This document shows, in pieces, positions 2,707 through 25,328 of a stretch of 64,000 nucleotides of DNA; position 1 is the stretch's first letter, and each line of letters starts with the position of its first letter. Made by a program: the position numbers and the translations under genes. The stretch covers positions 543 through 64,542 of the forward strand of contig JANNHO010000339.1 in the NCBI GenBank assembly GCA_031404435.1, written 5' to 3'. The notes under the pieces were generated by a model. It saw only the letters and a list, made by a program, of their open reading frames with translations. It did no database searches and was not told the DNA's origin. Origin of the DNA: Acidimicrobiaceae bacterium (GTDB lineage: Bacteria > Actinomycetota > Acidimicrobiia > Acidimicrobiales > Ilumatobacteraceae).

Positions 2707-3081
2707 ATGATTCGTCTGATCACCATGTTGAAGCGCAAGCCCGGCACGACCCACGACGAGTTCCTGCACCACTGGCTCACCGTCCACGGTCCGCTGATCG
2801 CCAACAGTTCTGCGGCCAACTACGTGCTTCGCTACGAGCAGCACCCAAGCGTGTGGCCAACCGACGCCGGTGCGACGGAGCCCGAGTGGGACGGCGTGAC
2901 GATCCAAGAGTTCGAATCGGTGCGCTCGTTCTGGGCACATACCTGCGAGGCGGATTTCCCGGCGATGCAGGACGACATCGTCTGCTTCCTCGATCCGTCG
3001 GCGCTGGCTTGGACGCTCGTCGAGGTACCGACGATCGTGATCGGCCGAAACCCGGCCAACGATGGGAGCCCCACTATCTGA
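2707..3081 (+). CDS. EthD domain protein
   Basis: 124 aa. MIRLITMLKRKPGTTHDEFLHHWLTVHGPL is a typical EthD N-terminus. Confidence 0.75.
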   Translation: MIRLITMLKRKPGTTHDEFLHHWLTVHGPLIANSSAANYVLRYEQHPSVWPTDAGATEPEWDGVTIQEFESVRSFWAHTCEADFPAMQDDIVCFLDPSALAWTLVEVPTIVIGRNPANDGSPTI

Positions 3082-3093
3082 CGCCCCGTCAGA
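3077..3093. promoter_or_regulatory. palindromic operator candidate TCTGACG-CCC-CGTCAGA (copy 1)
   Basis: Exact 7+7 inverted repeat, extended to ATCTGACGCCCCGTCAGAT. It overlaps the EthD stop and its centre is 28 nt upstream of the ATG at 3113. Confidence 0.6.
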
Positions 3094-3112
3094 TTCGGCT
3101 ACGGTCACCCTG

Positions 3113-3901
3113 ATGATCCCGCAGATCGAGCTTGGCACGCTGTTGTTCACGATGGTGGAACCCCACCGCGGCCACGAGGTCGAGTACAACCGCTGGTACG
3201 AACACGACCACTTCTACTCGGGCTGCATGGTCGGTGCCGACACCTTCGCCGGTGACCGTTTCGTCGCCACCCGGCGGCTCAAAGATCTGCGATACCCCGC
3301 GGTGACGCCGATGACGCCAGACCCGTCGACCGGTTCGTACCTGGCGATCTACTGGGTGCTGAAGGGCCGCCACGACGAGTGGAACCGGTGGAGCGTCGAC
3401 AACGTGATCCAGCTCCACAGGCAGGGCCGGATGTTCACCGACCGCGACCACATCCACACGTCGCTCTACGACCACACGTGGTCGCTGCAGCGTGGTGAGC
3501 ACACCACCTCGATCGAGCTCGCTCTCGACCACGGCTACCCGGGGCTCGTCGTCAATGCCGGCGAGCTTGCCGACGATGTGACGTTCGACGACCTTCAGAC
3601 ATGGACCCGCCGCTGGGCAGACGACGCGTTCGCCACACCGTGGGGGCCGGACCTGATCGGCGCCTCGCGGCTGCTGCCGCTCCTTGACGACGCGCCCGCC
3701 GATGTGCCCCGCGTGGCCAATGCCGACCGCCGGTTCATCCAGTTGCACTTCCTCGATCACGACCCCGCCGACGGTTGGGTCGATGGCTGGGCGGGCTTCG
3801 GGGCAGAGCTGAACGCGAGCGGTGTCGCGACGCACCTGTGGACCGCCCCGTTCGTCCAAACCATGTTCGGCACCGACACCTACACCGACGAGCTGTGGTG
3901 A
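3113..3901 (+). CDS. conserved hypothetical protein (EYNRWYEHDHFYSG motif)
   Basis: Track ORF 3062..3901 trimmed to the ATG at 3113 just downstream of the palindrome. No family confidently recognised. Confidence 0.55.
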   Translation: MIPQIELGTLLFTMVEPHRGHEVEYNRWYEHDHFYSGCMVGADTFAGDRFVATRRLKDLRYPAVTPMTPDPSTGSYLAIYWVLKGRHDEWNRWSVDNVIQLHRQGRMFTDRDHIHTSLYDHTWSLQRGEHTTSIELALDHGYPGLVVNAGELADDVTFDDLQTWTRRWADDAFATPWGPDLIGASRLLPLLDDAPADVPRVANADRRFIQLHFLDHDPADGWVDGWAGFGAELNASGVATHLWTAPFVQTMFGTDTYTDELW

Positions 3902-4842
3902 GTGCCGTGATCCAACCCATCACCGGCAAACGGATCGCCATCACCGGGGTCACCGGCTGGGTGGCCGGCCCGGTCGCGGCGAGCCTTGCCGCGCAGGGCA
4001 ACACGGTGTTCGGGGTCGCCCGCTTCCGCGACGCCGCGGCGCAGGCGAAGGTGGAGGACACCGGAGTGCAGCCGGTGGCAATCGACCTTGCCGCCAACGA
4101 CTTCTCCGACCTGCCCGACGATCTTGATCTCGTGTTCAACTTCGCCGTCGCCAAGGCCGACAACTTCGAGTTGGCGTTCCGGGTCAACGCCGAAGGCTCG
4201 GCCGACTTGATGGAGGCGGCCGCCGAGCGCAGCCCGCAACTGAGCGCGTTCTTCCACTGCTCGTCGACTGCGGTGTACGAGCCGGTGCACGGGTCGCCGC
4301 GCGCCGAGACCGACCCGCTCGGCGACAGCCACCGGCCGATGCCGGGCATGCCCACGTACTCGATCTCCAAGATCGCCGCCGAGGTGCTGGTGCGCCACAC
4401 CTCTCGCCGCCTCGAGGTGCCCACTGTGATTGCCCGCCTCAACGTCCCATACGGCGACACCTACGGATGGATGCTGTTCCACCTGATGATGATGGAGCGC
4501 GGTATCCCCGTGCCGGTGCATGTGGATCAGCCGACCGATTACACACCGATCCACTCCGACGACATCACCCGCAGCCTGCCCTACCTGCTGTCGCTCGCGG
4601 ACACGCCGGCCGAGATCGTCAACTGGGGCGGCGACGAGATCGCCTCGGTCGAGGATTGGAGCAACGAGCTCGGCCGCCTGTGCGGGCTCACGCCCACGTT
4701 CGCGCCGACCACGGCAACGATCGCCTCGATCGTGCCCGACCTCACCAAGCTGCATGCGACCGGATTTCGTTCGCAGGTCGGCTGGCGCGACGGCATGAGC
4801 CGGATGGTTGCTGCATCACGGCCCGACCTACTGCCAGCCTGA
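3898..4842 (+). CDS. NAD-dependent epimerase/dehydratase family protein
   Basis: ITGVTGWVAGPVA Rossmann motif near the N-terminus. GTG at 3898 overlaps the upstream TGA (GTGA). GTG 3907 is an alternative start. Confidence 0.75.
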   Translation: MSAVIQPITGKRIAITGVTGWVAGPVAASLAAQGNTVFGVARFRDAAAQAKVEDTGVQPVAIDLAANDFSDLPDDLDLVFNFAVAKADNFELAFRVNAEGSADLMEAAAERSPQLSAFFHCSSTAVYEPVHGSPRAETDPLGDSHRPMPGMPTYSISKIAAEVLVRHTSRRLEVPTVIARLNVPYGDTYGWMLFHLMMMERGIPVPVHVDQPTDYTPIHSDDITRSLPYLLSLADTPAEIVNWGGDEIASVEDWSNELGRLCGLTPTFAPTTATIASIVPDLTKLHATGFRSQVGWRDGMSRMVAASRPDLLPA

Positions 4843-4903
4843 CCGCCCGGCCAATCGTCGCACCGGCCATTCGCTGCACCGGCCGCATCGGCGGCACGGC
4901 GCA

Positions 4904-5590
4904 TCAGGGGGCGAGAGTTTGGATGAACTCATCGATCTGCGCGGCCACTTCGGCGGTGTGCGTGGACTCGTGCATCAGGTGCTCGCCACCGTCGATCACG
5001 GCCAGACGGGCATCGGGCATCTTGCGTTCGAGGTAGCGGCCGGCATCGGCGAACTCGGCCCGGTCGTCGCTGCCGGCCATCACCAACGTCGGCACCGGGG
5101 TCTCGGCCAGGCGGTCCATCACCACCGCGTCGTGCTGCAAGTTGAGCTCGGCGGCCTGCACCGGAATGCCGAAACGGTGTGCGTTACGACGCGACCGGGC
5201 GTTCCATTCCTCGCGCTTGGCAGGGTCGCGAAACCCTGGGCCGGTGTTGAGCACCACCACCCCACGGGCAACACCAGGGCGGGTGGCCGCGTGAGCGAGG
5301 GCAAGGTAGCCGCCGAGCGAGTGGCCAATCAGGACAGGGCGACCCGTGAGCGGGGCGAGCACCTCGTCGATGTCGGCGAGTGCCCGGTCACGCGTGTACT
5401 CGGCCGGATCATCGGGCACGGGCGAACGCCCATGGCCGAGCAGGTCGATCGCGAACACCTCATAACGGTGCTGCAGCCGCCCGATGCAGCCGGCCCATGT
5501 CGTCGACGATGAGCCGAGCCCGTGCAGCATCACGACCGGACGGCCATGGCCGGAGCGCTCGACATGCAACCGCGATGTGATCTCAGTCAT
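4904..5590 (-). CDS. alpha/beta hydrolase
   Basis: HGLGSS oxyanion region and the GHSLGG nucleophile elbow. Confidence 0.85.
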   Translation of the reverse strand: MTEITSRLHVERSGHGRPVVMLHGLGSSSTTWAGCIGRLQHRYEVFAIDLLGHGRSPVPDDPAEYTRDRALADIDEVLAPLTGRPVLIGHSLGGYLALAHAATRPGVARGVVVLNTGPGFRDPAKREEWNARSRRNAHRFGIPVQAAELNLQHDAVVMDRLAETPVPTLVMAGSDDRAEFADAGRYLERKMPDARLAVIDGGEHLMHESTHTAEVAAQIDEFIQTLAP

Positions 5591-6674
5591 GGCAGACCTT
5601 GGACGCGAGCAGGTTGCGGTGCATGATCAGATCTTGTGGGTCGTCGGGTGTTTCGCGGTTGCCGTACGCCGCCTCGCGCGACGAGGTTCGCAAGGACACG
5701 ACGGCAAATCGCGTGGCGGCGTAGGCGATGTACCAGTCGATGTCGGTGATCGGCCGGCCGCCGGCGGCCACATAGTCGGCGAGGACATCGTCGGGTTTGC
5801 AGAAGTCGGGGAAACCGGGCAGTTCGAACACGATGCTGAGGCTTTGGAAGAACTCGTGCAGCAGGATCAGCCAGCCGACGTCCATCCCGGCCGGGCCGAG
5901 GTCGACCATTTCCCAGTCGAGCACCGCAGCCGGCTTGGTGCCGTCGAACAGGATGTTGCCGGGCCGGGCGTCGCCCCACAACAACACCGTCGGGCCGGGA
6001 TCGACCGGACGGTGCTCGTGTAGCCATTCAATCGCAGTGTCGATCAGCGGAACGGTCTGATCGCCGAAGGACCATCCGGTGCGCGCCCACTCGTAGTAGC
6101 TCTGCAACTCGGCCAGATGTCGACTGAGCGACTCGTGTCCGGATTCGCCGACCGGGCCGATGGCCGACGCGTCGGTCACGGTGAGGTCGAGTGCATGCAG
6201 TCGGACGAGAACGTCGGTGGCCTCACGCTGCAGGTCACGTCGTTCGTCGGGGCTCATCGCATCGAGCGCGCTGCCGCCGAACACGTACGGCGGCATGTCG
6301 GGCAGCGCCCGGCCGTGCACCCTGCGCATCACGATGAACGGTGCGCCGAGGTGGCTGTCGTCGTCTTCCACCCACGGCACCTCGGGCACCGGCACATCGC
6401 TGTGTGCGCCGACGAGGCGCATCGCCGCAGCCTGCTTGGCGAGGTCGTACTCGCGGAACACGGGCCAGTCGTTCATGTCGGGGCGCACCCTGGCGACCAA
6501 CTCTTCGGTGCGGCCGTCGTGGGTCAGGTCGAAGAGCAGGGTTTCGCTCGACATGCCCGTGCCCTCCGGGATCGATACCGGCCCGACCAACGCAGCGTGA
6601 CCGAGCGTGGCACTGAACCACCGCTCGAGCGCGGCACGCAGCTGCTCGGGATCGCGTTTTGATGGCAGCGGCAT
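5583..6674 (-). CDS. phosphotransferase (APH/ChoK-like kinase) family protein
   Basis: Track ORF trimmed to the ATG at 6674 (MPLPSKRDPEQL). LLWGDARPGNILF and DWEM motifs of aminoglycoside phosphotransferase-like kinases. 8-nt overlap with the downstream hydrolase. Confidence 0.8.
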   Translation of the reverse strand: MPLPSKRDPEQLRAALERWFSATLGHAALVGPVSIPEGTGMSSETLLFDLTHDGRTEELVARVRPDMNDWPVFREYDLAKQAAAMRLVGAHSDVPVPEVPWVEDDDSHLGAPFIVMRRVHGRALPDMPPYVFGGSALDAMSPDERRDLQREATDVLVRLHALDLTVTDASAIGPVGESGHESLSRHLAELQSYYEWARTGWSFGDQTVPLIDTAIEWLHEHRPVDPGPTVLLWGDARPGNILFDGTKPAAVLDWEMVDLGPAGMDVGWLILLHEFFQSLSIVFELPGFPDFCKPDDVLADYVAAGGRPITDIDWYIAYAATRFAVVSLRTSSREAAYGNRETPDDPQDLIMHRNLLASKVCHD

Positions 6675-6682
6675 GACGGCTC

Positions 6683-7114
6683 CTAGCGAATGTAGAGCAG
6701 GTGCTCGAAACGGTCGGCGATCAGCCAGCCGCTGGCGGTGCGCACGATCGTGTCGCGGTAGAAGCCGCACGCCTCCATGAAGATCGGAGTGTCGCCGGGG
6801 ATGCGCATCACCATCTTGTACAGCGAGCGCACGTTCGCAGTGTCGTCACCGGTGAAGTCGATCACCACGTTGCTGTTCTGGCTGATCGACACGTCGAACA
6901 TCGCCAAGCTCGGCTCGATCCACGCTGCGGCCTCAGCCGGAGTACCGGCGATCCCGCCAGCGGTGGTGTAGTCGGCGTGCCCGTTGTCGGTGAAGCACGC
7001 CTGCCACGCGAGAAAGTCGCGGTCGGCAAGCGCCCACGAATAGCGGCCCAACAGTTCATGGATCGCCAAGCGGTCAGCAGTTCGTGCGTCGGTCATCGGG
7101 GGAACCGTAGTCAC
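6683..7114 (-). CDS. SnoaL-like / NTF2-fold protein
   Basis: DRLAIHELLGRYSWALADRDF..W..CFT pattern typical of SnoaL_4 proteins. Alternative start at 7096. Confidence 0.7.
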   Translation of the reverse strand: MTTVPPMTDARTADRLAIHELLGRYSWALADRDFLAWQACFTDNGHADYTTAGGIAGTPAEAAAWIEPSLAMFDVSISQNSNVVIDFTGDDTANVRSLYKMVMRIPGDTPIFMEACGFYRDTIVRTASGWLIADRFEHLLYIR

Positions 7115-7123
7115 CAGCGCTGG

Positions 7124-8332: not shown

Positions 8333-8407
8333 CGTGCTAATGTAACCCATTAGAACGATTCCTGTCAACGCCCGCGACGTCATCGCGGCCAGCCGGAGGT
8401 ACGTGCT

Positions 8408-9679
8408 ATGACGTCGACGTTTGCGCAGCAGTTGATCCTCGATCGCGACATGTATGCGGCCGACCCGCACCAGTTCTTCACCTGGTTGCGCGCCAACCAG
8501 CCGGTGTACTGCGACCCTGCCGGGATGTGGACGCTCACCAAACATCACGACATCCGCACCGCCGAGCGCCAGCCACTGCTGTTTTCGAATGCGCTGGGTT
8601 CGCGCCCGAACGGGATGCCGCAGCCGTCGCTGATCGACAGCGACGACCCGTGGCACGCCGCGCAACGCCGCCTCGTTGCCCAGGGCTTCACGTACCGCCA
8701 GATGCAGCTCTACGAGGCGCATGTGGTCGAAGTGGCCCGGCGGCTCGTCGACGATGTGATCGCCGTCGGCTCCAGCTCAGGCTCCAGCTCCGGTTCGTGC
8801 GATGTGGTCGAGGCATTCGCCAAACCGCTGCCGATGATGCTGATCGGCGAGATGCTCGGTGCATCGCCCGATCACTATGAGCGGTTGCAGCACTGGAGCG
8901 ACCAGATGATCGCCGGTTCGGACGGACCGGAGCGGGTCACCGACGACGTCATCGGCGCGGCGTTCGCGTACTACGCATACATCACCGAGGTCATCGCCGA
9001 CCGGCGTGCTCACCCGCGTGACGACCTCGTCAGTACGCTCGTGCACGCGTCGCTCGGCAGCGGCACGCCCGGTGCCAGTTGGGGTGCCAGTGGTGCATCG
9101 GGTGCCGACACGCTGCTCGACGACGACCACATCGTCGGGAACGCGCTGCTGCTGCTGGTCGGCGGGAACGAAACCACCCGGAGCGTCATCGCCGGTGGGT
9201 TGCATGCGCTGCTCACCCATCCCGAGCAGATGGCGGTGGCGCTCGATTCTGTCCGCTCGGGCGGGATCAGTCCGGCTGCGGTTGAGGAATGCCTGCGCTG
9301 GGTGACGCCGATCAACAACATGAACCGGGTGACGACGGCCGATGTGGAGATGCGCGGTGTGACCATTCCCGCCGGCTCACAGGTGCTGATGTCGTACATC
9401 TCGGCCAACCGTGACGAGGATGTTTTCGACAACCCGTTCCGCTTCGACGTGAGTCGCGACCCGAATCCGCACCTGGCGTTCGGCTTCGGTCCGCATCTGT
9501 GCCTCGGCGCGCAGCTCGCCCGCTTGGAGCTACGCGTGATCCTCACCGAAGTGCTCGGCCGCCTGCCCGACCTGCGCCTGACGAGCCCCGACGATCCGCC
9601 GACGTTCACGCATTCGTCGTTCGTCCGCGGTATCCAGTCCCTCCCGGTCACGTTCGGCGGCAGGTCGAAGATTCAGTAG
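8408..9679 (+). CDS. cytochrome P450
   Basis: FGFGPHLCLGAQLA heme-thiolate loop, the GGNETT I-helix motif, and ECLRW (ExxR). Confidence 0.9.
   Translation: MTSTFAQQLILDRDMYAADPHQFFTWLRANQPVYCDPAGMWTLTKHHDIRTAERQPLLFSNALGSRPNGMPQPSLIDSDDPWHAAQRRLVAQGFTYRQMQLYEAHVVEVARRLVDDVIAVGSSSGSSSGSCDVVEAFAKPLPMMLIGEMLGASPDHYERLQHWSDQMIAGSDGPERVTDDVIGAAFAYYAYITEVIADRRAHPRDDLVSTLVHASLGSGTPGASWGASGASGADTLLDDDHIVGNALLLLVGGNETTRSVIAGGLHALLTHPEQMAVALDSVRSGGISPAAVEECLRWVTPINNMNRVTTADVEMRGVTIPAGSQVLMSYISANRDEDVFDNPFRFDVSRDPNPHLAFGFGPHLCLGAQLARLELRVILTEVLGRLPDLRLTSPDDPPTFTHSSFVRGIQSLPVTFGGRSKIQ
8768..8791 (+). repeat. 12-bp x2 in-frame tandem duplication inside the P450 (GSSSGSSS)
   Basis: ggctccagctca / ggctccagctcc are adjacent copies. 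Confidence 0.8.
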
Positions 9680-9695
9680 CGGGGTAGAGCGGGGC

Positions 9696-11067
9696 TCAGT
9701 TGGGTGGGTCTGGTGGGTCGTCGGTGTCGTGGCACTCCTTGCGCATTCGCCAGCGAAGTTTGGCGCGGAGTTGGTCGAGGTGATCGACGGTTCGTTCGGG
9801 CAGTGGGGTGCCGCCGTGGTCGTGGAGTCGGTGGTCGCGGTTGTGGGGGCGGCATTCGATTTTGGCGTTCCATTGGCTGGTGGGACCGCCACGGGAGTAG
9901 GGGGATGATGTGGTCGACGTCGCAGTCGTCGGCGGGGGTATCGCATTGTGAGGGGTGTTGGCAGCGACGGTCGCGTACTTGAATGGCGCGGCGGATGGCA
10001 CCGGTGAAGGTTCGGCGTGAGGAGACGGAGATGATCGTGGATGGTCCGTCGAAGAGGACGCACTCGATGTCGGATTCGGTGAGGTGGGCAAGGAGCTGGT
10101 TGGGCGTGATGACGATGCCGTTGCTGAGTTCGCAGAGCCGGTCGAGTGTCTTCTCGCCGACGACGACGGTGAACAGCGGGCGTGGGCGGCGTCCATCAGC
10201 CGGCGCGGTAGCGGAACGTGTGGCCATTTCGATCAGGGCTGCGGCGCGGCGTTGGGCGGGTGTGCGGTTGGTTCCGGCGGTTTGATCGGCGAGGCGGATC
10301 TGTTCGGCAAGACGGTTCAGTTCGTGCTCAATGATGGTGCCGCCAATCGCGTCGAACACCCCATCGAGGACGAGGATGTCGTCGATGGTGCGTGAGGCAT
10401 ACAACCGCGAATCGACAGGCGCGCTGGCGTCGGCTGTACCGAAGTCGGTAGTCGAGTCATCGGTTGCCGGGCCGGCAGCATTGTTCGGCTCGGCGATCGG
10501 GTCGTCGGCTTTGGGGTCGTTCCCGGGCGTTGATTCGGCGCGATGTTGGTCGCTGAGTTCTTCGTCGGTTTGGTTGGCCCAGTAGCGGACGGCCCGTGCT
10601 CCGTCAGCGAACGACAGCCTGACGCATCGGTTGACGAGAATTGCTTCGTCGCGTTCGAACAGCGCCCGCCGTTTGGGGGTGTTGACGTGGGCGAGGAGAT
10701 CAAGGTGGTCGGTGCTGAGCCGGCCTTCGACGACGGCGGTGCGGGTGAGTGGGAGGTGGCCGATGCGTCGTGCTCGGCGGAGCTCCCCGCTCGTCGAGCG
10801 AACGGCGGCGCGAGTTTCGCGGGCGAGTCGGTTGGCTGCGCTGCGGGATCCATCTGTTTGCCATATCCGGCGGGTGTCCCACTCGGCGAGTAGACCGGCG
10901 GCAGCGACCGATAGCCGCGATCGCTCGGCCCGCACACGCGCGACCAGATCGTGCAGGTTTGCGTCGTCGAGGGATCCCGGATCGAGGTCCAACAACTGGG
11001 ATGTGGCATCGTGCAGCGGTGCATGTGGCTCCGCCGACCACTGGGATGCGACCACAGCGCTGAACAT
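9696..11067 (-). pseudogene. DUF222/HNH endonuclease (13E12-repeat-family type), disrupted by a +1 frameshift
   Basis: DUF222-like N-terminus from ATG 11067. Frame 9673..11094 reads ..CDVDHIIP and then nonsense. After the run of five G (plus strand 9900-9904), frame 9696..10196 continues YSRGGPTSQWNAKIECRPHNRDHRLHDHGG, the canonical HNH core. Confidence 0.75.
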
Positions 11068-11133
11068 GATTCGATCATCGCATGGGGGTGTCACAGAGTT
11101 ATCGGGATCCGGCCCAGCCGCCAGGGCAGCAGA

Positions 11134-11604
11134 TCAGTGCAGCCAGCGCGAGATCGATTCGACCACGCACACGGGCTTGCTGACGCCGTCAGCTTCGATG
11201 GTGATCGTCATCGTGGTTTGCAGCCCGCCTGGAACGTCCGCGACATCGGTGAGCTGTGCGCCGGCACGGACCCGCGAGCCGACCGGCACGGGCGCGGGAA
11301 AACGCACACGGTTGGTGCCGTAGTTGACTCCGGCGGCGAAGCCGGTGACCTCGACGATCTGCGGGAGGAACAGGTTGGACAACGACAGCGTGAGGTAGCC
11401 GTGGGCGATCGGTGCGCCGAACGGGCCGGCGGTGGCGCGCACTGGATCGATGTGGATCCACTGGTGGTCGCCGGTCGACTCGGCGAAGGCGTCGATGCGC
11501 TGCTGGTCGATCAGCAACCAGTCGCTGTAGCCGAGGTGCCGGCCGAGCGCAGCGCGTACCTCGTCGGGACCGTCAAGCACGGTGGCGGCCACGCTCACGC
11601 TCAC
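11134..11604 (-). CDS. MaoC-like (R)-hydratase/dehydratase
   Basis: DQQRIDAFAESTGDHQWIHIDP..A..GPFG.PIAHG hot-dog motif. GTG 11604 overlaps the upstream TGA. Confidence 0.8.
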   Translation of the reverse strand: MSVSVAATVLDGPDEVRAALGRHLGYSDWLLIDQQRIDAFAESTGDHQWIHIDPVRATAGPFGAPIAHGYLTLSLSNLFLPQIVEVTGFAAGVNYGTNRVRFPAPVPVGSRVRAGAQLTDVADVPGGLQTTMTITIEADGVSKPVCVVESISRWLH

Positions 11605-12665
11605 GCTCCCAGCCGGGCGAGCACCACTTCGGCTTCGGCGATGATCCGATCGATGAGTTCGTGGCATGACGGCAGGTCGTCGATCACTCCGACAACCTGG
11701 CCGCTGGCCATCACGCCGCTGGCGGTGTTGCCGTCGACAAGGGCAGCCTTCAGCAGCATCGGGGTGTTCGCCGCCATCAACATCTGCGCGTAGCTGAGGT
11801 TGCCGGCAGCGCGCATTGCCGTTCCCTCGCGCCACATCTGACGCAGCGTCAGGCCGGTCATCGTCTTGAACCGGTTGGCGTTTAGCGCGGCCCGCCCCAG
11901 TGACAGAACCTTGCCGCGGCCCGATTCGAGTTGGTCGATGAGCTCGGTGTTGAGCACCCGGTGCGGCACCCCGTCGACCTGCTTGGTGACGGTGGTGTCG
12001 GCAACACCTTTAGCGAGGTAGTAGTCCTTCACCGACTGCGGCACCGCCGAATCGCTGGTGAGCAGGAACCGTGTTCCCATGGCGATGCCATCGGCGCCGT
12101 AGGCCAGCGCAGCGACAAGGCCGCGGCCGTCGAAGAACCCGCCGGCGGCGATGACCGGCACCCGGCCCTGCACGGCGTCGACCACCTGCGGCAACAGGAT
12201 GCTGGTCGGCACCGACCCGGTGTGGCCGCCGCCCTCGCCACCTTGCACGAGCACCGCGTCGACACCCCACTGCAGCACCTTCTCGGCGTGGCGCTTCGCC
12301 CCGATCGAGGGGACGACGAGCACACCGCCATCGTGCAGGCGCGAGATGAGCGCCTCCTTCGGCGCCTGCGCGAACGACGCCACGCGCACGCCCTGGTCGA
12401 TGAGTAGCGCGACCCGGTCGTCGATGTCGTGTGCGTCGGCACGTAGGTTGACCCCGAACGGTCGATCGGTTCGAGAGCGCACCTCGGCCACCGCTGCTCG
12501 CAGCTGGGCGAAGTCCATCGTCGCGCTGGCGAGGATGCCGAGCGCACCGGCGTTGGCCGTTGCCGCAACCAACCGTGGACCGGCGACCCAGCCCATCCCG
12601 GTTTGCACGATCGGCACCGTCACGCCGAACAAGTCGCACACACCCGTGCGCAGCGTGGCGTGCAT
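11601..12665 (-). CDS. ipdC: nitronate monooxygenase-family flavoenzyme, IpdC (Rv3553)-like
   Basis: PIVQTGMGWVAGPRLVAA and GGEGGGHTG NMO motifs. It sits directly after ipdAB, as in mycobacteria. Confidence 0.75.
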   Translation of the reverse strand: MHATLRTGVCDLFGVTVPIVQTGMGWVAGPRLVAATANAGALGILASATMDFAQLRAAVAEVRSRTDRPFGVNLRADAHDIDDRVALLIDQGVRVASFAQAPKEALISRLHDGGVLVVPSIGAKRHAEKVLQWGVDAVLVQGGEGGGHTGSVPTSILLPQVVDAVQGRVPVIAAGGFFDGRGLVAALAYGADGIAMGTRFLLTSDSAVPQSVKDYYLAKGVADTTVTKQVDGVPHRVLNTELIDQLESGRGKVLSLGRAALNANRFKTMTGLTLRQMWREGTAMRAAGNLSYAQMLMAANTPMLLKAALVDGNTASGVMASGQVVGVIDDLPSCHELIDRIIAEAEVVLARLGA

Positions 12666-15056: not shown

Positions 15057-15075
15057 GCGGCGATGGTACCCGCGA

Positions 15076-15092
15076 TCTGACGCCCCGTCAGA
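15076..15092. promoter_or_regulatory. palindromic operator candidate TCTGACG-CCC-CGTCAGA (copy 2)
   Basis: Exact 7+7 inverted repeat in the 106-nt divergent gap between echA20 (start 15056) and the acyl-CoA ligase (start 15163). Confidence 0.65.
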
Positions 15093-15162: not shown

Positions 15163-16758
15163 ATGAACGACGTACACGAGGCCGACGCCGCGACGGTGAC
15201 CAAGGAACTCATCTATCACCGGTTCTTCCTGCCCACGGCGCGACGCAATGCCGACCGGCCGTGCACGACGAACGCAGCGACCGGTGTCACCCGAACATAC
15301 GCTCAACACCTTGACCGGGTGGGCCGTGCGATCGGCGGGTTACAAGGGCTCGGCGTCGGCCGTGGCGACCGGTTCGCGTTGATGATGGCGAACTCGCCGG
15401 AGTACCTCGAGTTGTTCCACGCAGCGATGCTCGGCGGTGGTGTGGTCAACCCGTTGAACCTGCGCTTTGCCCCGAACGAGTTGGCGTACGTGCTGAAGGA
15501 CTCGGGCAGCACCGTGTGCTTCGTCGACAAGATGTTCGCACCGCTGATCGACGCGGTGAAGGAGGCCGCCGGTCTCGAGCACGTGATCCTCGTCGGCGAC
15601 GGCGACGTCGCGCACACGATGAGCTACGAGGCGATGCTTGCCGCGTCGGAGCCGGTCATTCCAGAGGAAGGCGAGGAGTCCGACCCGGTCGTGCTGATGT
15701 ACACCGGCGGGACAACAGGGTTGCCGAAGGGCGTGCTGTCGAGCCAGCGGGCGCAGATCCTCAACGCCTACCACTGCCGGATGGGTTTGCCGTTCAACCG
15801 TGACACCAAGTACTTGATGTTGACGCCGATGTTTCATGCTGCTTCGACGTTCGCGATGGTCCTCGCATCGGCCGTTGGCGGACACATGGTGACCGTGCCG
15901 ATGTTCGAGCCATCGGCAGCGATGCGGGCGATCCGCGAACATCGCCCGACGCTGACGGTGATGGTGCCGACGATGATCGGGATGGTGCTGGCGCACCCGG
16001 AGTTCACCGCTGATGCGCTGGACTGCGTCAACGACTTGGGCTATGGCGCCTCTCCGATGCCGACGGTGCTGCTCGAGAAGTTGGCCGCGCTGTACCCGGC
16101 GCTGAACCTGTGGCAGGTGTACGGCATGACCGAGGCATCGCCCGCGCTGACGATGCTGACACCCGCCGATCACCGCGCTGGCGGTGCGCTGCTGAAGTCG
16201 GCAGGCATGGCGGTGCCGGGTGTCGTGCTGTCGATCCGCGACGCTGACGGCAACGAAGTCGCAGACGGTGAGCCGGGGGAGGTGTGCGCCCGCGGTGGCA
16301 ACTACATGATCGAGTACTGGAACAAGCCCGAGGCGACCGTCGAAGCGTTTACCGGGGGTTGGTACCACACCGGTGACGCCGGCTACATCGACGCCGAGGG
16401 CTACCTGTTCCTCGTCGACCGCGTGAAGGACATGATCGTGACCGGCGGTGAGAACGTGTACTCCTCCGAGGTCGAGAACGCGATTGCCAGCCACCCGGCC
16501 GTGCTGCAGGTTGCCGTCATCGGTGTTCCGAGCGACGAGTGGGGCGAAGCGGTGCATGCGATCGTCGTGCTCCGCCCGGATGCAACCGCCACCGAGGCCG
16601 AGATCATCACCCTCGCTCGGCGGTCGATCGCCGGGTTCATGCTGGGCTTGTCCGTTTCGTTCGGCGCCGATCCGCTGCCGCTGTCAGGTGCGATGAAGGT
16701 CCTCAAGCGTGAACTGCGCGCCCCCTACTGGGAGGGCCACGAGCGCCGGGTCGGCTGA
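15163..16758 (+). CDS. acyl-CoA synthetase / AMP-dependent ligase (FadD family)
   Basis: Track ORF 14890..16758 trimmed to ATG 15163 (GGGGGA RBS region). LMYTGGTTGLPKGV AMP-binding motif, YGMTE, GWYHTGD, TGGENV. Confidence 0.85.
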   Translation: MNDVHEADAATVTKELIYHRFFLPTARRNADRPCTTNAATGVTRTYAQHLDRVGRAIGGLQGLGVGRGDRFALMMANSPEYLELFHAAMLGGGVVNPLNLRFAPNELAYVLKDSGSTVCFVDKMFAPLIDAVKEAAGLEHVILVGDGDVAHTMSYEAMLAASEPVIPEEGEESDPVVLMYTGGTTGLPKGVLSSQRAQILNAYHCRMGLPFNRDTKYLMLTPMFHAASTFAMVLASAVGGHMVTVPMFEPSAAMRAIREHRPTLTVMVPTMIGMVLAHPEFTADALDCVNDLGYGASPMPTVLLEKLAALYPALNLWQVYGMTEASPALTMLTPADHRAGGALLKSAGMAVPGVVLSIRDADGNEVADGEPGEVCARGGNYMIEYWNKPEATVEAFTGGWYHTGDAGYIDAEGYLFLVDRVKDMIVTGGENVYSSEVENAIASHPAVLQVAVIGVPSDEWGEAVHAIVVLRPDATATEAEIITLARRSIAGFMLGLSVSFGADPLPLSGAMKVLKRELRAPYWEGHERRVG

Positions 16759-16799: not shown

Positions 16800-17582
16800 G
16801 TGGGTACCGCGACGTTTGATTTCACCGGCGATGTCGTGCTGATCACGGGCGGCACGAAAGGTGTCGGTCGCGGCATCGCTGCACGTTTCGAGCAGGCAGG
16901 CGCGCAGGTGGTGGTATGTGCTCGTTCTGCCGGCGACAATCCTCTGCCGGATACGTGGGACTTTCGGGCCGCTGATCTTCGCGACGGTGAGCAGGCGTGG
17001 GGACTGGTCGACGGCATCGTTGCCACACATGGTCACATCGACGTGGTGATCAACAATGCCGGCGGTTCGCCCCCGGTCGAGACGGCGAGCGCGGCACCGC
17101 GGCTGACCGAGCGGATCGTCGCGTTGAACCTGCTGGCCCCGCTCTACATCAGCCAGCGGGCCAATCACCACATGCAGGGTCAGGCCGGGGGAGGGGCGAT
17201 CGTCAACATCGGCAGCGTCTCCGCGCAGCGGCAGTCGCCGACCGCAGCGGCATACGGTGCGGCCAAGGCCGGCATGGCGAACTTCGCAATGACCGCGGCG
17301 CACGAGTGGGCGCCGAAGGTGCGGATCAACACGGTGATGGCAGGGATCATCCGTACCGAGCAAGCGGCCATGCACTACGGCGACGACGCGGCCATCGCTC
17401 GGATCGAGGGGATCATCCCCATGGGACGGATGGCCACCCCCGACGACATCGCCGATGCGTGCATGTACCTCGCGTCTTCGGCCGCGGCGTATGCCACCGG
17501 CGCCACCGTGCTGCTCGACGGCGGTGGCGACCGACCGGCGTTTCTCGCCGCACTGGAAGCGAACGACGTTCCCACGGGCTGA
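16800..17582 (+). CDS. SDR family oxidoreductase
   Basis: VLITGGTKGVGRGIA, NNAG, S..Q....YGAAKAG motifs. Confidence 0.85.
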   Translation: MGTATFDFTGDVVLITGGTKGVGRGIAARFEQAGAQVVVCARSAGDNPLPDTWDFRAADLRDGEQAWGLVDGIVATHGHIDVVINNAGGSPPVETASAAPRLTERIVALNLLAPLYISQRANHHMQGQAGGGAIVNIGSVSAQRQSPTAAAYGAAKAGMANFAMTAAHEWAPKVRINTVMAGIIRTEQAAMHYGDDAAIARIEGIIPMGRMATPDDIADACMYLASSAAAYATGATVLLDGGGDRPAFLAALEANDVPTG

Positions 17583-17592: not shown

Positions 17593-17609
17593 TCTGACGT
17601 TGCGTCAGA
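17593..17609. promoter_or_regulatory. palindromic operator candidate TCTGACG-TTG-CGTCAGA (copy 3)
   Basis: Exact 7+7 inverted repeat (AATCTGACGTTGCGTCAGAT) between the SDR stop (17582) and the next ligase start. Confidence 0.6.
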
Positions 17610-17642
17610 TGCTCGCGACTGGTGCTGGCTACCATCGCCGCC

Positions 17643-19094: not shown

Positions 19095-19147
19095 CCGACG
19101 AGCCCGGCACCCGGCGGCCCACCAGGGCTGGTTAGGTGACTTGATCG

Positions 19148-19336: not shown

Positions 19337-19744
19337 TCAAGGACTCGTGGTTGCCCCGCTGGCCTGTTGCGCCGCTTCCATTTCGGCGAGAAGCGCTGCC
19401 GGCCAACGACCACCACACCAGATCGTGTCTTTGGATATCTGGCCATCGCGCAATTTGAGGATGTGCGCCTGATGGCACATGTGGGCCACCCCTTGCTCGT
19501 CCCAGCGCAGGGTCAGTTCGACCAGTTCCCCGTCAGCCAGCGCGGTACGCCGGACATCTTCGAATCGACCCGGTTCTGCGTACCACTTGCTGAGCTCGGC
19601 TTGAACCGCCCCTGCACCCCGGACCGAATAACGCCAGTTCGGGACCGTGGCGTCGAGCACCACGTCGTCACAATAGATTTCGACGGGAATCCTCGCGGCC
19701 TCGATCCCCGCCACGAACTCGTCAACGGCACTCGTGCTCTTCAT
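19337..19744 (-). CDS. SnoaL-like / NTF2-fold protein
   Basis: Track ORF trimmed to ATG 19744 (MKSTSAVDEFV), with an AAAGG RBS-like sequence upstream. Small alpha+beta barrel-type sequence. Confidence 0.6.
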   Translation of the reverse strand: MKSTSAVDEFVAGIEAARIPVEIYCDDVVLDATVPNWRYSVRGAGAVQAELSKWYAEPGRFEDVRRTALADGELVELTLRWDEQGVAHMCHQAHILKLRDGQISKDTIWCGGRWPAALLAEMEAAQQASGATTSP

Positions 19745-19809
19745 GTCATCACCTTTCGTGTCTGTCTGTGTCTGGGTTCTCGCTGTGTCTGGTTCTGCCT
19801 GTGCCCCTG

Positions 19810-20148
19810 TCAACCTTTGACGTAGGAGAGCTTCTCGGAGATCTGGCCTCCACGAACGCGAAACACATCAACGCCCCGCACGTGTCCGTCGTCCCACGTG
19901 TATCGCCACAGCTGGACCACCCGGTCGGCCGCGGCAAACGACTCCTCCTCATGGAACGCGGCAGCATCGTTATCAAAGATCGGTTGCCACGCCGCACGGA
20001 CGGCATCCTTGCCGACGTAACGAGTGCCGTCGGGTGCGGGACCTGTGGCATCGAATATGCAGTCATCGGTGACCAGCGCCAACGCGGCGTCGAGGTCGTG
20101 TGCCGCCCAGGCTGCGCCGAACGCCGCGATGACTTCGATCTCGTTCAC
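19810..20148 (-). CDS. SnoaL-like / NTF2-fold protein
   Basis: GTG 20148 lies just after the cupin stop. NEIEVIAAFGAAWAAHDLDAALALVTDDCIFD is a typical SnoaL N-terminus. Confidence 0.62.
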   Translation of the reverse strand: MNEIEVIAAFGAAWAAHDLDAALALVTDDCIFDATGPAPDGTRYVGKDAVRAAWQPIFDNDAAAFHEEESFAAADRVVQLWRYTWDDGHVRGVDVFRVRGGQISEKLSYVKG

Positions 20149-20152
20149 GTCG

Positions 20153-20518
20153 TCAGTTTCCGGGGGTGGTGGCGTAGTTGCTCGCTCCGAACCAATCGAC
20201 CACCACCACTGCCTCGTCACCGACGACCCAGGCATCATGACCGCTGGGAAGCGAGGTGACATCGCCGGGGCCGGCGATGAATTCGGTCCCGTCGTCCATG
20301 CGGATCGCCAATCGGCCGCTGACGTGGTACTGGAAGTGGGGCGCGAGGCAGCTCGCGGTTTGAGCGATTGGTTTGACGTCGTTGGACCACCGCCACCCCG
20401 GCTCGAGCACGAGCCGACCAACCTCGGCACCGCCGATGTTGATGATCTCGGCGCGGCCATTGGGAAACTGTCTCACCTCATCAGCAGTGACAAAACTACG
20501 ATGCTCGGTACTTTGCAC
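20153..20518 (-). CDS. cupin domain protein
   Basis: 121 aa. Conserved cupin barrel pattern (..H.H..G.L......G.E....GD...LP.GH.A). GAAGGAG RBS upstream of GTG 20518. Confidence 0.75.
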   Translation of the reverse strand: MQSTEHRSFVTADEVRQFPNGRAEIINIGGAEVGRLVLEPGWRWSNDVKPIAQTASCLAPHFQYHVSGRLAIRMDDGTEFIAGPGDVTSLPSGHDAWVVGDEAVVVVDWFGASNYATTPGN

Positions 20519-20572
20519 GGCGGTTGCTCCTTCTCGGCTTGTCGGGTCCGGTACACTCGACGGTATTCAACC

Positions 20573-20588
20573 TACCTACTAGTAAGTA
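20573..20588. promoter_or_regulatory. AT-rich near-palindrome TACCTACTAGTAAGTA in the divergent TetR/cupin promoter region
   Basis: 7 of 8 positions pair. It lies in the only AT-rich stretch between the cupin start (20518) and the TetR start (20624). Confidence 0.4.
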
Positions 20589-20623
20589 AGAGGTCAAGGA
20601 AAATTTTACGCCCACACGACACC

Positions 20624-21250
20624 ATGGGGCCTGACGCGATCTTTTCAGGACTACCCGGCGATAGGGACACCGCTTCGCTGGTGCTCGATGCCGCAGAACG
20701 GCTTGTGCAGACTCGCGGGTTCAACTCGTTCAGCTACGCCGACGTCGCTCGCGAACTCGAGCTCACCAAGGCTGCGCTTCATTACCACTTCGCCACGAAG
20801 GCGGATCTTGGCGAGGCTCTGCTTGAACGCTTCGCCGCACGCTTCGCGAGCGCGCTCGACAGAATCGATGCCAAACCCGCGCGCGCGCCGGACAAGCTTG
20901 CCGCCTACGCCGACCTGTACCTCGATGTGCTGCGTCGCGACCAGATGTGCCTGTGCGGGATGCTCGCGGCCGAATACCGAACGCTGCCCGAACGCATGCA
21001 GGTGATCGTGGTCCGATTCTTCAACGACAACGAAGCTTGGCTGACGGGGGTCGTCGAGCGAGGGCAAACGGAGGGCACGATCGACGGCGCCGTATCACCT
21101 CACGACGCGGCGCGCTCGATTGTTGCTGCGTTCGAAGGTGCCATGCTGATCGCTCGGCCTTTTGGTGACGTGGCATGGTTTCAGGCCACGGCGGCCACCG
21201 TTCTCAACGGTCTGGTCAGCGCGGCCTCTGTGCCGGCTCGCGGGCAGTGA
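20624..21250 (+). CDS. TetR/AcrR family transcriptional regulator
   Basis: Track ORF 20024..21250 trimmed to ATG 20624. GFNSFSYADVARELELTKAALHYHF helix-turn-helix signature. Confidence 0.9.
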   Translation: MGPDAIFSGLPGDRDTASLVLDAAERLVQTRGFNSFSYADVARELELTKAALHYHFATKADLGEALLERFAARFASALDRIDAKPARAPDKLAAYADLYLDVLRRDQMCLCGMLAAEYRTLPERMQVIVVRFFNDNEAWLTGVVERGQTEGTIDGAVSPHDAARSIVAAFEGAMLIARPFGDVAWFQATAATVLNGLVSAASVPARGQ

Positions 21251-22184: not shown

Positions 22185-22220
22185 GCTAGGGCGATTCGTG
22201 ATTCGGGGGTGCCCGGCGCC

Positions 22221-23027: not shown

Positions 23028-23055
23028 TGTCGTTGCCTTTCGAGCGGTGCGGCCA

Positions 23056-24246
23056 TCAGCGCGCCAGCCCGAGGACGCGTTCGCCGATCACGCTACGTTG
23101 GATCTCGTTCGACCCGCCGTAGATGGTGTCTGACCGCGAGAACAGGAACAGCTTCTGCTCCAACGACAGCTCGTAGTGGCCCGCCTTGCTCACGCCAGCC
23201 GGACCGATCAATCCGGCCGGTCCGAGCAGGTCGATCATGAGGTTGCACAGGTCGCGGTGCCAGGTCCCCCAGAACAACTTGGAGATGCTGGCCTCGGGCC
23301 CCGGCACCCCGGCGCCCATCGACCGCAATGCGTTCCACCGCATGAGTTGCAACCCCGTGTGCGCGGTCATGAGCCGTTGACGCATCACCGGATCGCCGGT
23401 GAGGCCGGACCGGCGCGCGAGGTCGATGACGTGGCGCACCTCGCGCTCGAAACCGACCTGCTGGGCCAGGGTGGAGATGCCGCGCTCGAAGCCGAGCAGC
23501 GTCATCGCCACGCGCCATCCGTCGCCTGGTGTGCCGACCACCATGTCGGCACCGGTGCGTGCCCCGGTGAAGAACGTCTCGTTGAACTCGCCACCACCGG
23601 TGAGCTGCACGATCGGACGGACCTCGACGCCGGGCTGGTCCATGGGCACCAGCAGCAGGCTGAGCCCGCTGTGACGCTGCGATCCCGCCTCGGTGCGCAC
23701 CAGCACGAAACACCAGTGGCTCACGTGCGCGAGCGAGGTCCACACCTTCTGGCCGTCGATCACCCACTGGTCGCCATCGAGGTGGGCGCGGGTCTGCACG
23801 TTGGCGAGATCACTGCCTGCATCGGGTTCGCTGTAGCCCTGGCACCAGCGGTGCGTTCCGTCGAGGATGCCCGGCAAGAACCGGGTGCGCTGAGCGTCGG
23901 TGCCACGCTCGATCAGCGTTGGCGCGAGTAGGTTCTCGCCCATGTGGTTGACCCGGGCTGGTGCTCCGGCGCGGCAGTACTCCTCGGCCCAGATGACCTG
24001 CTGGCCAACGGTTGCGCCCCGGCCACCGTGACGCTCCGGCCAGCCGAGACCGATCCAACCGGCCTCGCCGAGGACGCGCTCCCACCGGACGCGCGTCTCG
24101 AATCCGACGTCTTCGTCGCCCGGTCCGCCGCGGCCGCGCAACTCGGCGAACTCGCCGACCACGTGATCACCAAGCCAGCGCTGGACAAGGGAGCGGAACT
24201 GGTTGTCGGAGAGCTCGGCGAGGGGGGTGGTCAACGTGAGGCCCAT
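23056..24246 (-). CDS. acyl-CoA dehydrogenase (FadE30-like position)
   Basis: Track ORF trimmed to ATG 24246 (MGLTLTTPLAEL). WCQGYSEPDAGSDLA and GGSNEIQR ACAD motifs. Confidence 0.88.
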   Translation of the reverse strand: MGLTLTTPLAELSDNQFRSLVQRWLGDHVVGEFAELRGRGGPGDEDVGFETRVRWERVLGEAGWIGLGWPERHGGRGATVGQQVIWAEEYCRAGAPARVNHMGENLLAPTLIERGTDAQRTRFLPGILDGTHRWCQGYSEPDAGSDLANVQTRAHLDGDQWVIDGQKVWTSLAHVSHWCFVLVRTEAGSQRHSGLSLLLVPMDQPGVEVRPIVQLTGGGEFNETFFTGARTGADMVVGTPGDGWRVAMTLLGFERGISTLAQQVGFEREVRHVIDLARRSGLTGDPVMRQRLMTAHTGLQLMRWNALRSMGAGVPGPEASISKLFWGTWHRDLCNLMIDLLGPAGLIGPAGVSKAGHYELSLEQKLFLFSRSDTIYGGSNEIQRSVIGERVLGLAR

Positions 24247-24250
24247 GGTT

Positions 24251-24267
24251 TCTGACGGTCCGTCAGA
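24251..24267. promoter_or_regulatory. palindromic operator candidate TCTGACG-GTC-CGTCAGA (copy 4)
   Basis: Extended 23-bp perfect palindrome GTTTCTGACGGTCCGTCAGAAAC (24248-24270). It occupies most of the 38-nt gap between divergent starts 24246 and 24285. Confidence 0.65.
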
Positions 24268-24284
24268 AACTAGCATCGCCAAGC

Positions 24285-25328
24285 ATGGAGGCCATTGCGG
24301 GGATGAGCGACCGAATCGCGCTGGCCCATGTGGCCGGCTACGCGCAACGGGTCGAAGCGCTCGGCTACGACACCTTGCACGTCCCCGAAACCGTGCACGA
24401 CGCGATGGTGGTCTCGCTGCTCGCGCTGCAGGCAACCAAGCGCTTGCGCGTGGCGAGCAGCGTCGTCCTCGCGTTCGTGCGCAGCCCGATGCTCGTCGCC
24501 TACACGGCGTGGGACCTCGCCTCGGTGAGCGGTGGCCGATTCGAGCTCGGCCTCGGTTCGCAGATCCGCCAGAACATCGAGGGCCGCTACTCGATGCCGT
24601 GGGCCGAACCGGTTGGGCGCATGCGTGAGTACGTCGAATCGCTACGCGCGATCTGGCACTCGTTCGCCACCGGTGAGCCGCTGCACTACGTAGGCGAGCA
24701 CTACGCCTTCACCCGGCTGCAGCCGTTCTTCAACCCTGGCAACCACCAAGCAGGGGCACCTCCGGTCTTGCTCGGGGGAGTGAACGAACGGATCTGCGGG
24801 CTCGGCGGATCGCACGCCGACGCGTTCGTCACCCATCCCACCAACTCGAACCCGCGCTACCTGCGCGAGTTCTGCCTCCCTCGACTTGACGAGGCGGCCG
24901 CCGCAGCCGGCCGCCCGCGCCCGCGCGTGGTCACCGGCAGCATGTTCGTCACCGGTCGCACCGCCGTCGACGTCGCCGCGAGTCGCGAACACCTACGCGC
25001 CACCCTCGCGTTCTTGTACACCACGCCTGCGTACCGGCGGACGCTCGACCTGTTTGGATGGGCCGAACTCGGTGAGCGTTTGCAGCGGATGACCCGCGAA
25101 GGAGAGTGGGACCGACTCGACACCTTGCTCACCGACGAGGTGCTGGACGCAATCGTTCCCCAGGGCGCGTGGAACGAGCTGCCGGCGTTGGTCGAGGGGT
25201 GGTTCGGCGGTTTGGTCGATGGGGTGATGCTGCCTGTGCCGGCTGACCCGGTCAACGACGCCGAGTTCGCCGACGTCATCTCCGCCATACGGGCCATCGG
25301 ATCTGACGGCGCGTCAGAAACCGCGTAG
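24285..25328 (+). CDS. LLM-class (probably F420-dependent) oxidoreductase
   Basis: LGYDTLHVPET.HD, RFELGLGSQ and other luciferase-like motifs. 347 aa. Confidence 0.8.
   Translation: MEAIAGMSDRIALAHVAGYAQRVEALGYDTLHVPETVHDAMVVSLLALQATKRLRVASSVVLAFVRSPMLVAYTAWDLASVSGGRFELGLGSQIRQNIEGRYSMPWAEPVGRMREYVESLRAIWHSFATGEPLHYVGEHYAFTRLQPFFNPGNHQAGAPPVLLGGVNERICGLGGSHADAFVTHPTNSNPRYLREFCLPRLDEAAAAAGRPRPRVVTGSMFVTGRTAVDVAASREHLRATLAFLYTTPAYRRTLDLFGWAELGERLQRMTREGEWDRLDTLLTDEVLDAIVPQGAWNELPALVEGWFGGLVDGVMLPVPADPVNDAEFADVISAIRAIGSDGASETA
25302..25318. promoter_or_regulatory. palindromic operator candidate TCTGACG-GCG-CGTCAGA (copy 5)
   Basis: Exact 7+7 inverted repeat inside the last codons of the LLM gene. 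Its centre is 28 nt upstream of GTG 25338. Confidence 0.6.

Follow-up and report, generated by a model that had tools for sequence, protein, structure and literature searches.

A conserved palindrome at the promoters of a steroid-type catabolic cluster in Acidimicrobiia, a probable and apparently undescribed operator

The 64-kb stretch of DNA analysed here in full (the window) carries, at 1.8-28.3 kb, a catabolic cluster in which the palindrome TCTGACG-N3-CGTCAGA occurs in five exact copies. A sequence-only reading had taken these copies for promoter-proximal, operator-like elements of one regulon, which raises the question of what the palindrome is and which protein binds it. To our knowledge, what has been learnt about the regulation of methylhexahydroindanedione propionate (HIP) catabolism comes almost entirely from KstR2, in Mycobacteriales and their close relatives. 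Judged by homology, the genes that flank the palindromes are equivalents of the KstR2/HIP regulon (steroid ring C/D catabolism). The mycobacterial regulon comprises the same enzyme families as this cluster (PMC5380842, PMC7807495), and KstR2 is a HIP-CoA-responsive TetR repressor of steroid ring C/D catabolism. The window has a G+C content of 66.6%. Close homologues of its local TetR protein all come from metagenome-assembled genomes (MAGs) of Acidimicrobiia type, and by this criterion its source is an Acidimicrobiia (Ilumatobacteraceae-like) MAG. A literature search found no publication of this palindrome or of HIP regulation in Acidimicrobiia. The palindrome appears to be a real and conserved operator that is apparently undescribed.

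The palindrome in the window and in related genomes

The five exact copies were found at 3077, 15076, 17593, 24251 and 25302, where the sequence-only reading had placed them. None of 100 dinucleotide-preserving shuffles of the window contained any exact copy (0 expected). A search with mismatches added one copy with a single mismatch (11837) and one irrelevant match with three. Scored with a position weight matrix trained on related genomes, the five sites reached 29-35. Apart from the copy at 11837 (17.1), no other position in the 64 kb scored above 6, giving a bimodal distribution across the window. Every exact copy fell within the catabolic cluster; the rest of the window, at 30-64 kb, encodes unrelated functions and contained none. 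The distances from sites to start codons and the 23-bp perfect palindrome at 24248-24270 were likewise as first described. The sites are as follows.

O1, 3077-3093: exact copy, matrix score 33.5; followed by 6 nt, TACGGT (3100-3105), 7 nt and ATG 3113
O2, 15076-15092: exact copy in a divergent gap; on the minus strand followed by 7 nt, TACCAT (15063-15068), 6 nt and ATG 15056; on the plus strand facing the ligase at 15163
O3, 17593-17609: exact copy, 10 nt past the stop of a short-chain dehydrogenase/reductase (SDR) gene and upstream of the second ligase; likely -10 box TACCAT (17630-17635)
O4, 24248-24270, core 24251-24267: perfect 23-bp palindrome in a 38-nt divergent gap; matrix score 35.0, the best in the window
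O5, 25302-25318: exact copy within the final codons of the F420-type luciferase-like monooxygenase (LLM) family gene; followed by 7 nt, TAGGCT (25326-25331), 6 nt and GTG 25338
Near-copy TCTGACGCAGCGTCAGG, 11837-11853: one mismatch, inside the ipdC-like open reading frame (ORF) 11601-12665 on the minus strand; matrix score 17.1

Individual sites recur with their surroundings in related genome loci, which carry numbers prefixed with L. In L011, a site precedes the orthologue of the 3113 gene by 19-20 nt. The layout at O2 is repeated at echA20 orthologues in L039, L042, L050, L053 and L054, where the site is followed by 6-8 nt, TA(G/T)GCT, 7-8 nt and GTG. O4 is followed on its plus side by 3 nt, TAGCAT (24271-24276), 8 nt and ATG 24285, and on its minus side faces the start at 24246 of a fadE30-like acyl-CoA dehydrogenase (ACAD); this layout recurs in L002, L005, L007, L008, L009 and L017. 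The arrangement at O5 was identical in at least eight related genomes (L001, L002, L004-L007, L010, L012). At O3, the start of the second ligase is more likely ATG 17643, judging from the series TACCAT, 7 nt and ATG, than GTG 17622. The near-copy at 11837 scored about as high as the shuffle maximum (16.8), is missing from the orthologous ipdC genes in L039 and L053, and is probably non-functional or weak.

Two of the sites overlap neighbouring genes. The TGA stop of the EthD-like gene (3079-3081) falls within the left half-site of O1, a very compact layout. O5 and its -10 box TAGGCT overlap the 3' codons and TAG stop of the LLM gene and would form an internal promoter.

Conservation was assessed in 79 genome loci collected around homologues of TetR1, the TetR-family protein encoded at 26506-27111 of the window, with 10 kb inspected on either side. 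Most loci with enough DNA and a TetR1 at least about 47% identical held a strong site, and loci with paralogues of at most 41% identity did so in 1 of 18 cases. The window and the 79 loci together contained 77 strong sites, with the wider consensus TCTGAC(G/A)-N3-(C/T)GTCAGA and W-rich flanks, and the 14 specified bases were nearly invariant across genomes of 56-73% GC. The comparison with relatives that had been proposed returned the same palindrome before orthologous genes, in about 45 related genomes: both ACADs, the LLM gene, echA20-ipdABC, fadA6, SDRs, Amidohydro_2, the 3113 gene and a cytochrome P450 (P450). The similar density inside coding regions that would speak against an operator was not seen in these loci, with 4 of 75 sites (~5%) internal to genes compared to 51% of random positions.

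The sites also share a promoter geometry. At 39 of 71 sites (55%) a TANNNT box follows 2-9 nt after the palindrome, and a further 5-9 nt on, an ORF of 100 aa or more begins with ATG or GTG; random positions showed this arrangement in 0.18% of cases. In the window it was present at O1, O2 (minus strand), O4 (plus strand) and O5. TANNNT close to a start codon is the leaderless promoter architecture established for actinobacteria. A palindrome so close to a -10 box, itself 5-9 nt before the start codon, would be predicted to overlap the -35/spacer region, and by analogy with such promoters we infer that the operator would occupy about -36 to -20. The distance to the -10 box is not constant: in operons encoding another regulator, the TetR_C_38 type described below, the site lies 4-22 nt upstream of it, and at the fadA6 genes of other clades the site follows a TANNNT box after 7 nt. 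Because both distance and side vary, a fixed promoter element is excluded.

A further inverted repeat, TTCGAGC-N8-GCTCGAA, adjoins the main palindrome in L031, L034, L038, L044-L046, L051 and L059 (for example at about 8060-8100 of L031). It sits in the divergent gap upstream of Amidohydro_2 and may be the site of a third regulator or part of a composite operator.

A metagenome scan for the exact pattern matched at least 120 stretches, and the figures from it apply to the matches listed. In this unbiased sample, 5 of 69 matches on high-GC contigs were internal to coding sequence compared to 56% of controls. Genes behind these sites encoded ACADs, EchA20, FadA6, SDRs, FadD3-type ligases and a KshA-like Rieske oxygenase, as well as ChsH2-type OB-fold proteins, family III CoA-transferases, amidohydrolases and an aldehyde dehydrogenase. 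Since site-bearing genes extend beyond the HIP set, the regulon is the broader of the two, and environmental DNA commonly carries the motif. The regulator-operator pair had been called lineage-specific; its distinctness from the KstR and KstR2 systems stands, but the motif is widespread in high-GC environmental contigs before acyl-CoA and steroid-type genes.

Some metagenome contigs stand apart. On L155, a TetR gene at 4867-5718 encodes a putatively KstR-like protein (helix-turn-helix [HTH] VQMRDVAARADVAIGTLYRYFPSK), and the same contig has a TCTGACG palindrome upstream of an SDR gene; some organisms may combine a KstR-type regulator with the TCTGACG operator. On L097, L113 and L081, contigs of 45-48% GC, the exact pattern is accompanied by a different shared flanking repeat, AGTCAGCTGAGTCATAGTAT, and these low-GC matches are probably an unrelated element that contains the same dyad.

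DNA operator or RNA element

The short distances to start codons had left open an action at the RNA level. A 7-bp stem with a 3-nt loop, in a leader or at a 3' end, would then serve as terminator, stabiliser or translation regulator. The predicted hairpins are stable in silico (-7.4 to -12.2 kcal/mol), O1, O3 and O5 are each found where an upstream gene on the same strand as the next one ends, and the fadA6 site of other genomes, being downstream of the -10 box, would be transcribed. The variation among sites points the other way. Of 44 distinct 17-mers, 25 deviated from the consensus and only 2 of these did so symmetrically; the other 23 were asymmetric and not compensating. Pair 6/12 was broken in 9 sequences and pair 7/11 in 8, positions 2-5 and 13-16 were invariant, and the spacer, which would be the loop, was unconstrained. 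Deviations that are asymmetric and non-compensatory indicate that sequence is conserved and structure is not, as expected of a DNA operator rather than an RNA hairpin. No T-run followed the palindrome at any window copy on either strand, and an Rfam search of window positions 1-30000 gave no match. At most units the palindrome would lie upstream of the -10 box of a leaderless gene. The RNA-level alternative was not supported, and of all the explanations weighed here we give it the slimmest chance.

Hardly better placed, and still highly improbable, is the set of explanations in which the palindrome is a -35-like element for an alternative sigma factor, an activator site, or a dispersed repeat of repetitive extragenic palindrome (REP) or miniature inverted-repeat transposable element (MITE) type with no regulatory role. 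The left half CTGACG does resemble TTGACA and lies ~18-19 nt from the -10 box at several units. Against a promoter element, the distance to the -10 box ranges from 3 to about 22 nt, or the site lies downstream of it, and the perfect dyad symmetry points to a dimeric binder. A centre near -28 is the position of a repressor rather than of an activator. Repeats of REP/MITE type would be spread irrespective of gene function; the copies here were found only in the catabolic cluster and, in distant genomes, at orthologous promoter positions across proteins 47-100% identical. Overall it is very unlikely that the palindrome is no operator at all, and the five copies are almost certainly binding sites of one repressor, in line with the regulon operator of the sequence-only reading.

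The candidate regulators

TetR dimers typically recognise dyads of this 7-3-7 form, in which 10 bp separate the half-site centres, and three types of TetR protein come into question. Two are encoded in the window, which also has a palindrome of a second kind.

TetR1, 26506-27111, minus strand: 201 aa, Pfam TetR_N, recognition helix NTSALHYHF; second gene of the fadA6-TetR1 operon
TetR2, 20624-21250: TetR_C_13 type, with its own imperfect 20-bp palindrome CCTACCTACTAGTAAGTAAG at 20571-20590
Second palindrome CTAATGTAACCCATTAG (GTAATG-N5-CATTAC family), 8337-8353: single copy in the window, 4 nt from the LLM start at 8332 and 54 nt from the P450 ATG at 8408

The third type (HTH AGTSPATFYQYF; Pfam TetR_N and TetR_C_38) comes from Acidimicrobiales and other actinobacterial MAGs. 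Its gene always stands third in an operon, behind an AMP-binding ligase of the FadD3 family and an SDR (PRK07791). A strong TCTGACG palindrome directly precedes this operon in 7 of 7 loci with upstream DNA (L099, L106, L200, L202, L204, L205, L206), followed by TAGTGT or TAGTCT, and no other conserved dyad was present at these promoters in the seven loci. On the 120 palindrome-bearing metagenome contigs, TetR-like ORFs among the matches listed were of the TetR_C_38 type in 5 of 11 cases and of the TetR1 type in 2 of 11. These observations give about an even chance that the binder is an EthR-like TetR_C_38 regulator, which would be encoded outside the window. The most economical assignment of proteins to motifs would pair TetR_C_38 with TCTGACG-N3-CGTCAGA, TetR1 with GTAATG-N5-CATTAC, and TetR2 with its own dyad.

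Several points weigh against TetR_C_38 as the binder. No TetR_C_38 gene is encoded within the 64-kb window. The TCTGACG palindrome precedes the fadA6...TetR1 operon in 19 related loci, which also fits autoregulation by TetR1, and TetR1 itself is the regulator encoded nearest to the sites, embedded in the cluster at distances of 1.2 kb (O5) and 2.2 kb (O4), in the position beside fadA6 that kstR2 holds in M. tuberculosis (PMC5380842). The FadD3-type-ligase operon could simply be one more member of the regulon, like fadD3 in the case of KstR2, and its TetR gene a passenger.

The sequence-only reading had named TetR1 the obvious candidate. TetR1 would then act at the same operator by the same mechanism, as a non-orthologous functional replacement of KstR2 beside fadA6. 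Its position makes this plausible, and the co-occurrence of strong sites within 10 kb of close TetR1 homologues, with their near absence at distant paralogues, speaks for it. That co-occurrence is confounded, since the loci were gathered by TetR1 homology and TetR1 always lies in a HIP-like cluster. The candidacy was not established: the TCTGACG palindrome is absent from the TetR1 operon in the window, in the close relatives L001 and L002 and in the clade members L003-L009. The fadA6-TetR1 promoter instead carries GTAATG-N5-CATTAC with 0-1 mismatch in nine loci (L010, L013, L014, L017-L019, L021, L022, L026) and a weaker copy with two mismatches in L020. Paralogues that share the helix AGQRNxSALHYHF have no TCTGACG motif nearby; one of them, in L067, with an identical recognition helix, has a TAATG-type palindrome (a two-mismatch GTAATG motif, 42 nt ahead of the match start), and the motif in L078 and L079 is GTTAAT-N8-ATTAAC. 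TetR1 as binder is therefore possible but, in our judgement, unlikely.

A third regulator encoded elsewhere, whether another TetR or a dimer of GntR, IclR or MarR type, would make both TetR types mere members of the regulon. Both TetR genes do lie within palindrome-controlled operons in some genomes, and the inspection covered 10 kb on either side of each locus. In about 200 loci, the surroundings of the sites showed no further recurrent gene for a DNA-binding protein, and the 7-3-7 dyad with its 10-bp centre spacing suits TetR dimers. A regulator of this kind is a good deal less probable than either TetR candidate.

The second palindrome was found by aligning regions upstream of fadA6, and it also precedes LLM monooxygenase orthologues in L011 and L029. 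In the window the copy at 8337-8353 is probably the real operator of the local TetR1 and would form a separate regulatory circuit inside the cluster. The fadA6-TetR1 operon of the window carries neither palindrome. Upstream of fadA6 (start 28301, Shine-Dalgarno sequence GGAGG, likely -10 box TACTGT) lies a low-GC non-coding stretch of ~190 nt (28302-28490) that is conserved in L001 and L002. As this stretch contains neither palindrome, the operon seems to be outside the control of both motifs in this clade.

Other attempts to separate the candidates were not informative. Correlating recognition helices with motifs failed as a discriminator, with an identical TetR1 helix in orthologues and in motif-less paralogues, and a palindrome search upstream of paralogues gave mostly GC-rich chance repeats. 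TetR2 was rejected as binder of the main palindrome: it has its own dyad in a divergent gap, and its orthologue was present only in L002. The gap at TetR2 is AT-rich and faces small minus-strand genes (19337-20460), and the whole has the look of a small regulatory unit of its own that was inserted into the cluster.

Structural comparison confirmed the TetR fold of TetR1 without giving a clue to its ligand. The AlphaFold2 model has a mean predicted local distance difference test (pLDDT) score of 93, and its nearest folds by model were PsrA/PA3006 (template-modelling [TM] score 0.70), NicR2, CecR and PhlH. By sequence, TetR1 matched the TetR proteins of the PDB over the HTH only.

The regulon, its relation to known systems and its significance

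Apart from the sites, the cluster and its surroundings comprise the following genes.

EthD-like gene, 2707-3081: stop TGA at 3079-3081
Conserved 262-aa protein, family not known: ATG 3113
LLM monooxygenase, minus strand: start 8332
P450: ATG 8408, divergent from the LLM monooxygenase
echA20-ipdA-ipdB-ipdC operon, 15056 down to 11601, minus strand: EchA20-type hydratase PRK07938
Acyl-CoA ligase, 15163-16758, plus strand: followed by an SDR gene at 16800-17582
Second acyl-CoA ligase, plus strand: BaiB/FadD4-like, ends at 19094
ipdF-like SDR, 23027-22221, minus strand: followed by an ORF at 22184-21216
fadE30-like ACAD, 24246 down to 23056, minus strand
F420-type LLM oxidoreductase, plus strand: start ATG 24285
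Second ACAD, 25338-26522, plus strand: start GTG 25338
fadA6-type steroid 3-ketoacyl-CoA thiolase (PRK07850), 28301-27111, minus strand: in an operon with TetR1

The NCBIfam equivalogs matched in the cluster include, besides PRK07938 and PRK07850, the SDR types PRK07856 and PRK07831. Family matches also identified IpdA- and IpdB-like CoA-transferase subunits and a FabK-like IpdC. The cluster contained no ring A/B genes, and fadA6, although inside it, has no palindrome site in the window. A DUF222 ORF (HNH, 13E12-type) at 9673-11094 separates the P450 from ipdC and may have split the cluster as an insertion of mobile-element type.

The family matches, with functions as described for mycobacteria (PMC5380842), bear out the view that the flanked genes are equivalents of the KstR2 regulon: echA20, ipdA, ipdB, ipdC, fadE30-type ACADs, an ipdF-type SDR and ligases are all present (PMC5380842, PMC7807495). 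The likeness extends to the use of several short palindromic operators at divergent or operon-leading promoters, to a TetR gene beside fadA6, and to the site that fadA6 carries in relatives of the window genome. Operator and regulator differ. A motif scan of the window agreed that the palindrome is neither the KstR nor the KstR2 operator: the KstR2 operator AnCAAGnnCTTGnT was absent from gene boundaries of the window, since it matched exactly only at 15805 and with one mismatch at 24435 and 26614, each time inside an ORF, and the KstR-type pattern TnnAACnnGTTnnA had no exact match in the window. With up to one mismatch the latter pattern matched 20 times against 5.5 expected, mostly in coding sequence, which is probably a codon or composition effect; one such match (8341) overlaps the second palindrome.

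Neither candidate regulator is orthologous to KstR2. Comparison with the KstR2 sequence, verified against the PDB, found no KstR2 orthologue encoded in the window. TetR1 aligned to KstR2 (Rv3557c; PDB 4W97, 4W1U, 2IBD) over 73 residues, confined to the HTH, and TetR2 gave no match. TetR_C_38 was 25% identical to KstR2 over 158 aa (E = 3e-5), with EthR as its best PDB match, and KstR2 structures were not among the best fold or profile matches of the candidates. By homology, then, the gene set is that of the KstR2 regulon, whereas its operator sequence is unrelated and its candidate regulators are different ones. KstR2 hosts are Mycobacterium and Rhodococcus, of the Mycobacteriales, and the window belongs to Acidimicrobiia.

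Three other systems invite comparison. EthR (Rv3855) resembles the TetR_C_38 candidate in domain composition (TetR_N and TetR_C_38, with EthR_C in distant members), and the profile match is near full-length (E about 1e-9). EthR, which controls ethA, occupies a long and complex operator in multimeric form. Here, by contrast, a simple 17-bp dyad stands at many promoters, and the regulator gene shares an operon with a FadD3-type ligase and an SDR. PsrA (PA3006), a fatty-acid-responsive regulator of beta-oxidation genes, is the best structural match of the TetR1 model, and the N-terminal region of TetR1 is CecR/PhlH-like. PsrA and CecR (YbiH) type regulators are ~15-22% identical to TetR1, PDB entries include no sequence homologue of the TetR1 ligand domain, and the operators are not alike. 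CecR has been reported to bind AT-rich inverted repeats (PMC6237786), and these resemble GTAATG-N5-CATTAC more than the TCTGACG motif. TetR itself binds tetO, a 15-bp dyad, as a single dimer, and the sites described here are similar in their dyad form, in half-site centres ~10 bp apart, in predicted core-promoter overlap and in operators shared by divergent pairs (O2, O4). Their arms of 7+3+7, or 23 bp at O4, are those of a short dyad fitting one dimer. TetR serves one locus, whereas here many operators are spread across a catabolic regulon.

In the mechanism that we propose, one dimeric HTH repressor of the TetR family would bind all five dyads and coordinate a HIP-type regulon that degrades rings C/D as acyl-CoA thioesters. 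A TetR dimer on the dyad would occlude the -35/spacer region or the start site and so exclude RNA polymerase. Repression and leaderless starts are deduced from geometry and from general knowledge of actinobacterial promoters. By analogy with KstR2 and HIP-CoA, and with other acyl-CoA-sensing TetRs, the repressor would leave its sites on binding a CoA thioester that a ligase of the regulon produces. Seven units of the window would be under such control: the 3113 gene and those downstream of it, echA20-ipdABC, the ligase-SDR pair, the second ligase, the fadE30-like ACAD with the ipdF-like SDR, the F420-type LLM oxidoreductase, and the second ACAD.

On a fuller reading, which we advance tentatively and rate at somewhat below even, the system may have two tiers: TetR_C_38 as master repressor acting through the TCTGACG dyad, and nested within it a CecR/PsrA-like TetR1 acting through GTAATG-N5-CATTAC. 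Promoters would be leaderless, the regulators non-orthologous to KstR and KstR2, and TetR_C_38 co-transcribed with the FadD3-type ligase that makes its inducer. The regulon might then be large, serving steroid/terpenoid-type ring and side-chain catabolism (HIP genes, KshA-like oxygenase, ChsH2/thiolase, CoA-transferases, amidohydrolases) in uncultured Acidimicrobiia and possibly in other high-GC environmental actinobacteria.

The cluster appears to be a steroid-type catabolic regulon under a TetR operator in which both regulator and operator have been non-orthologously replaced. In Acidimicrobiia, a major uncultured lineage of freshwater, marine and soil habitats, the HIP enzyme set would thus be wired to a different operator and to non-orthologous TetR proteins. 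The case also illustrates that a neighbouring regulator need not be the cognate one. So sharp a motif can be used as a probe to delineate the regulon in MAGs and to pick out unannotated pathway genes, such as those for the 262-aa protein at 3113, the F420-type LLM oxidoreductase and the amidohydrolases, and it could guide the design of biosensors.

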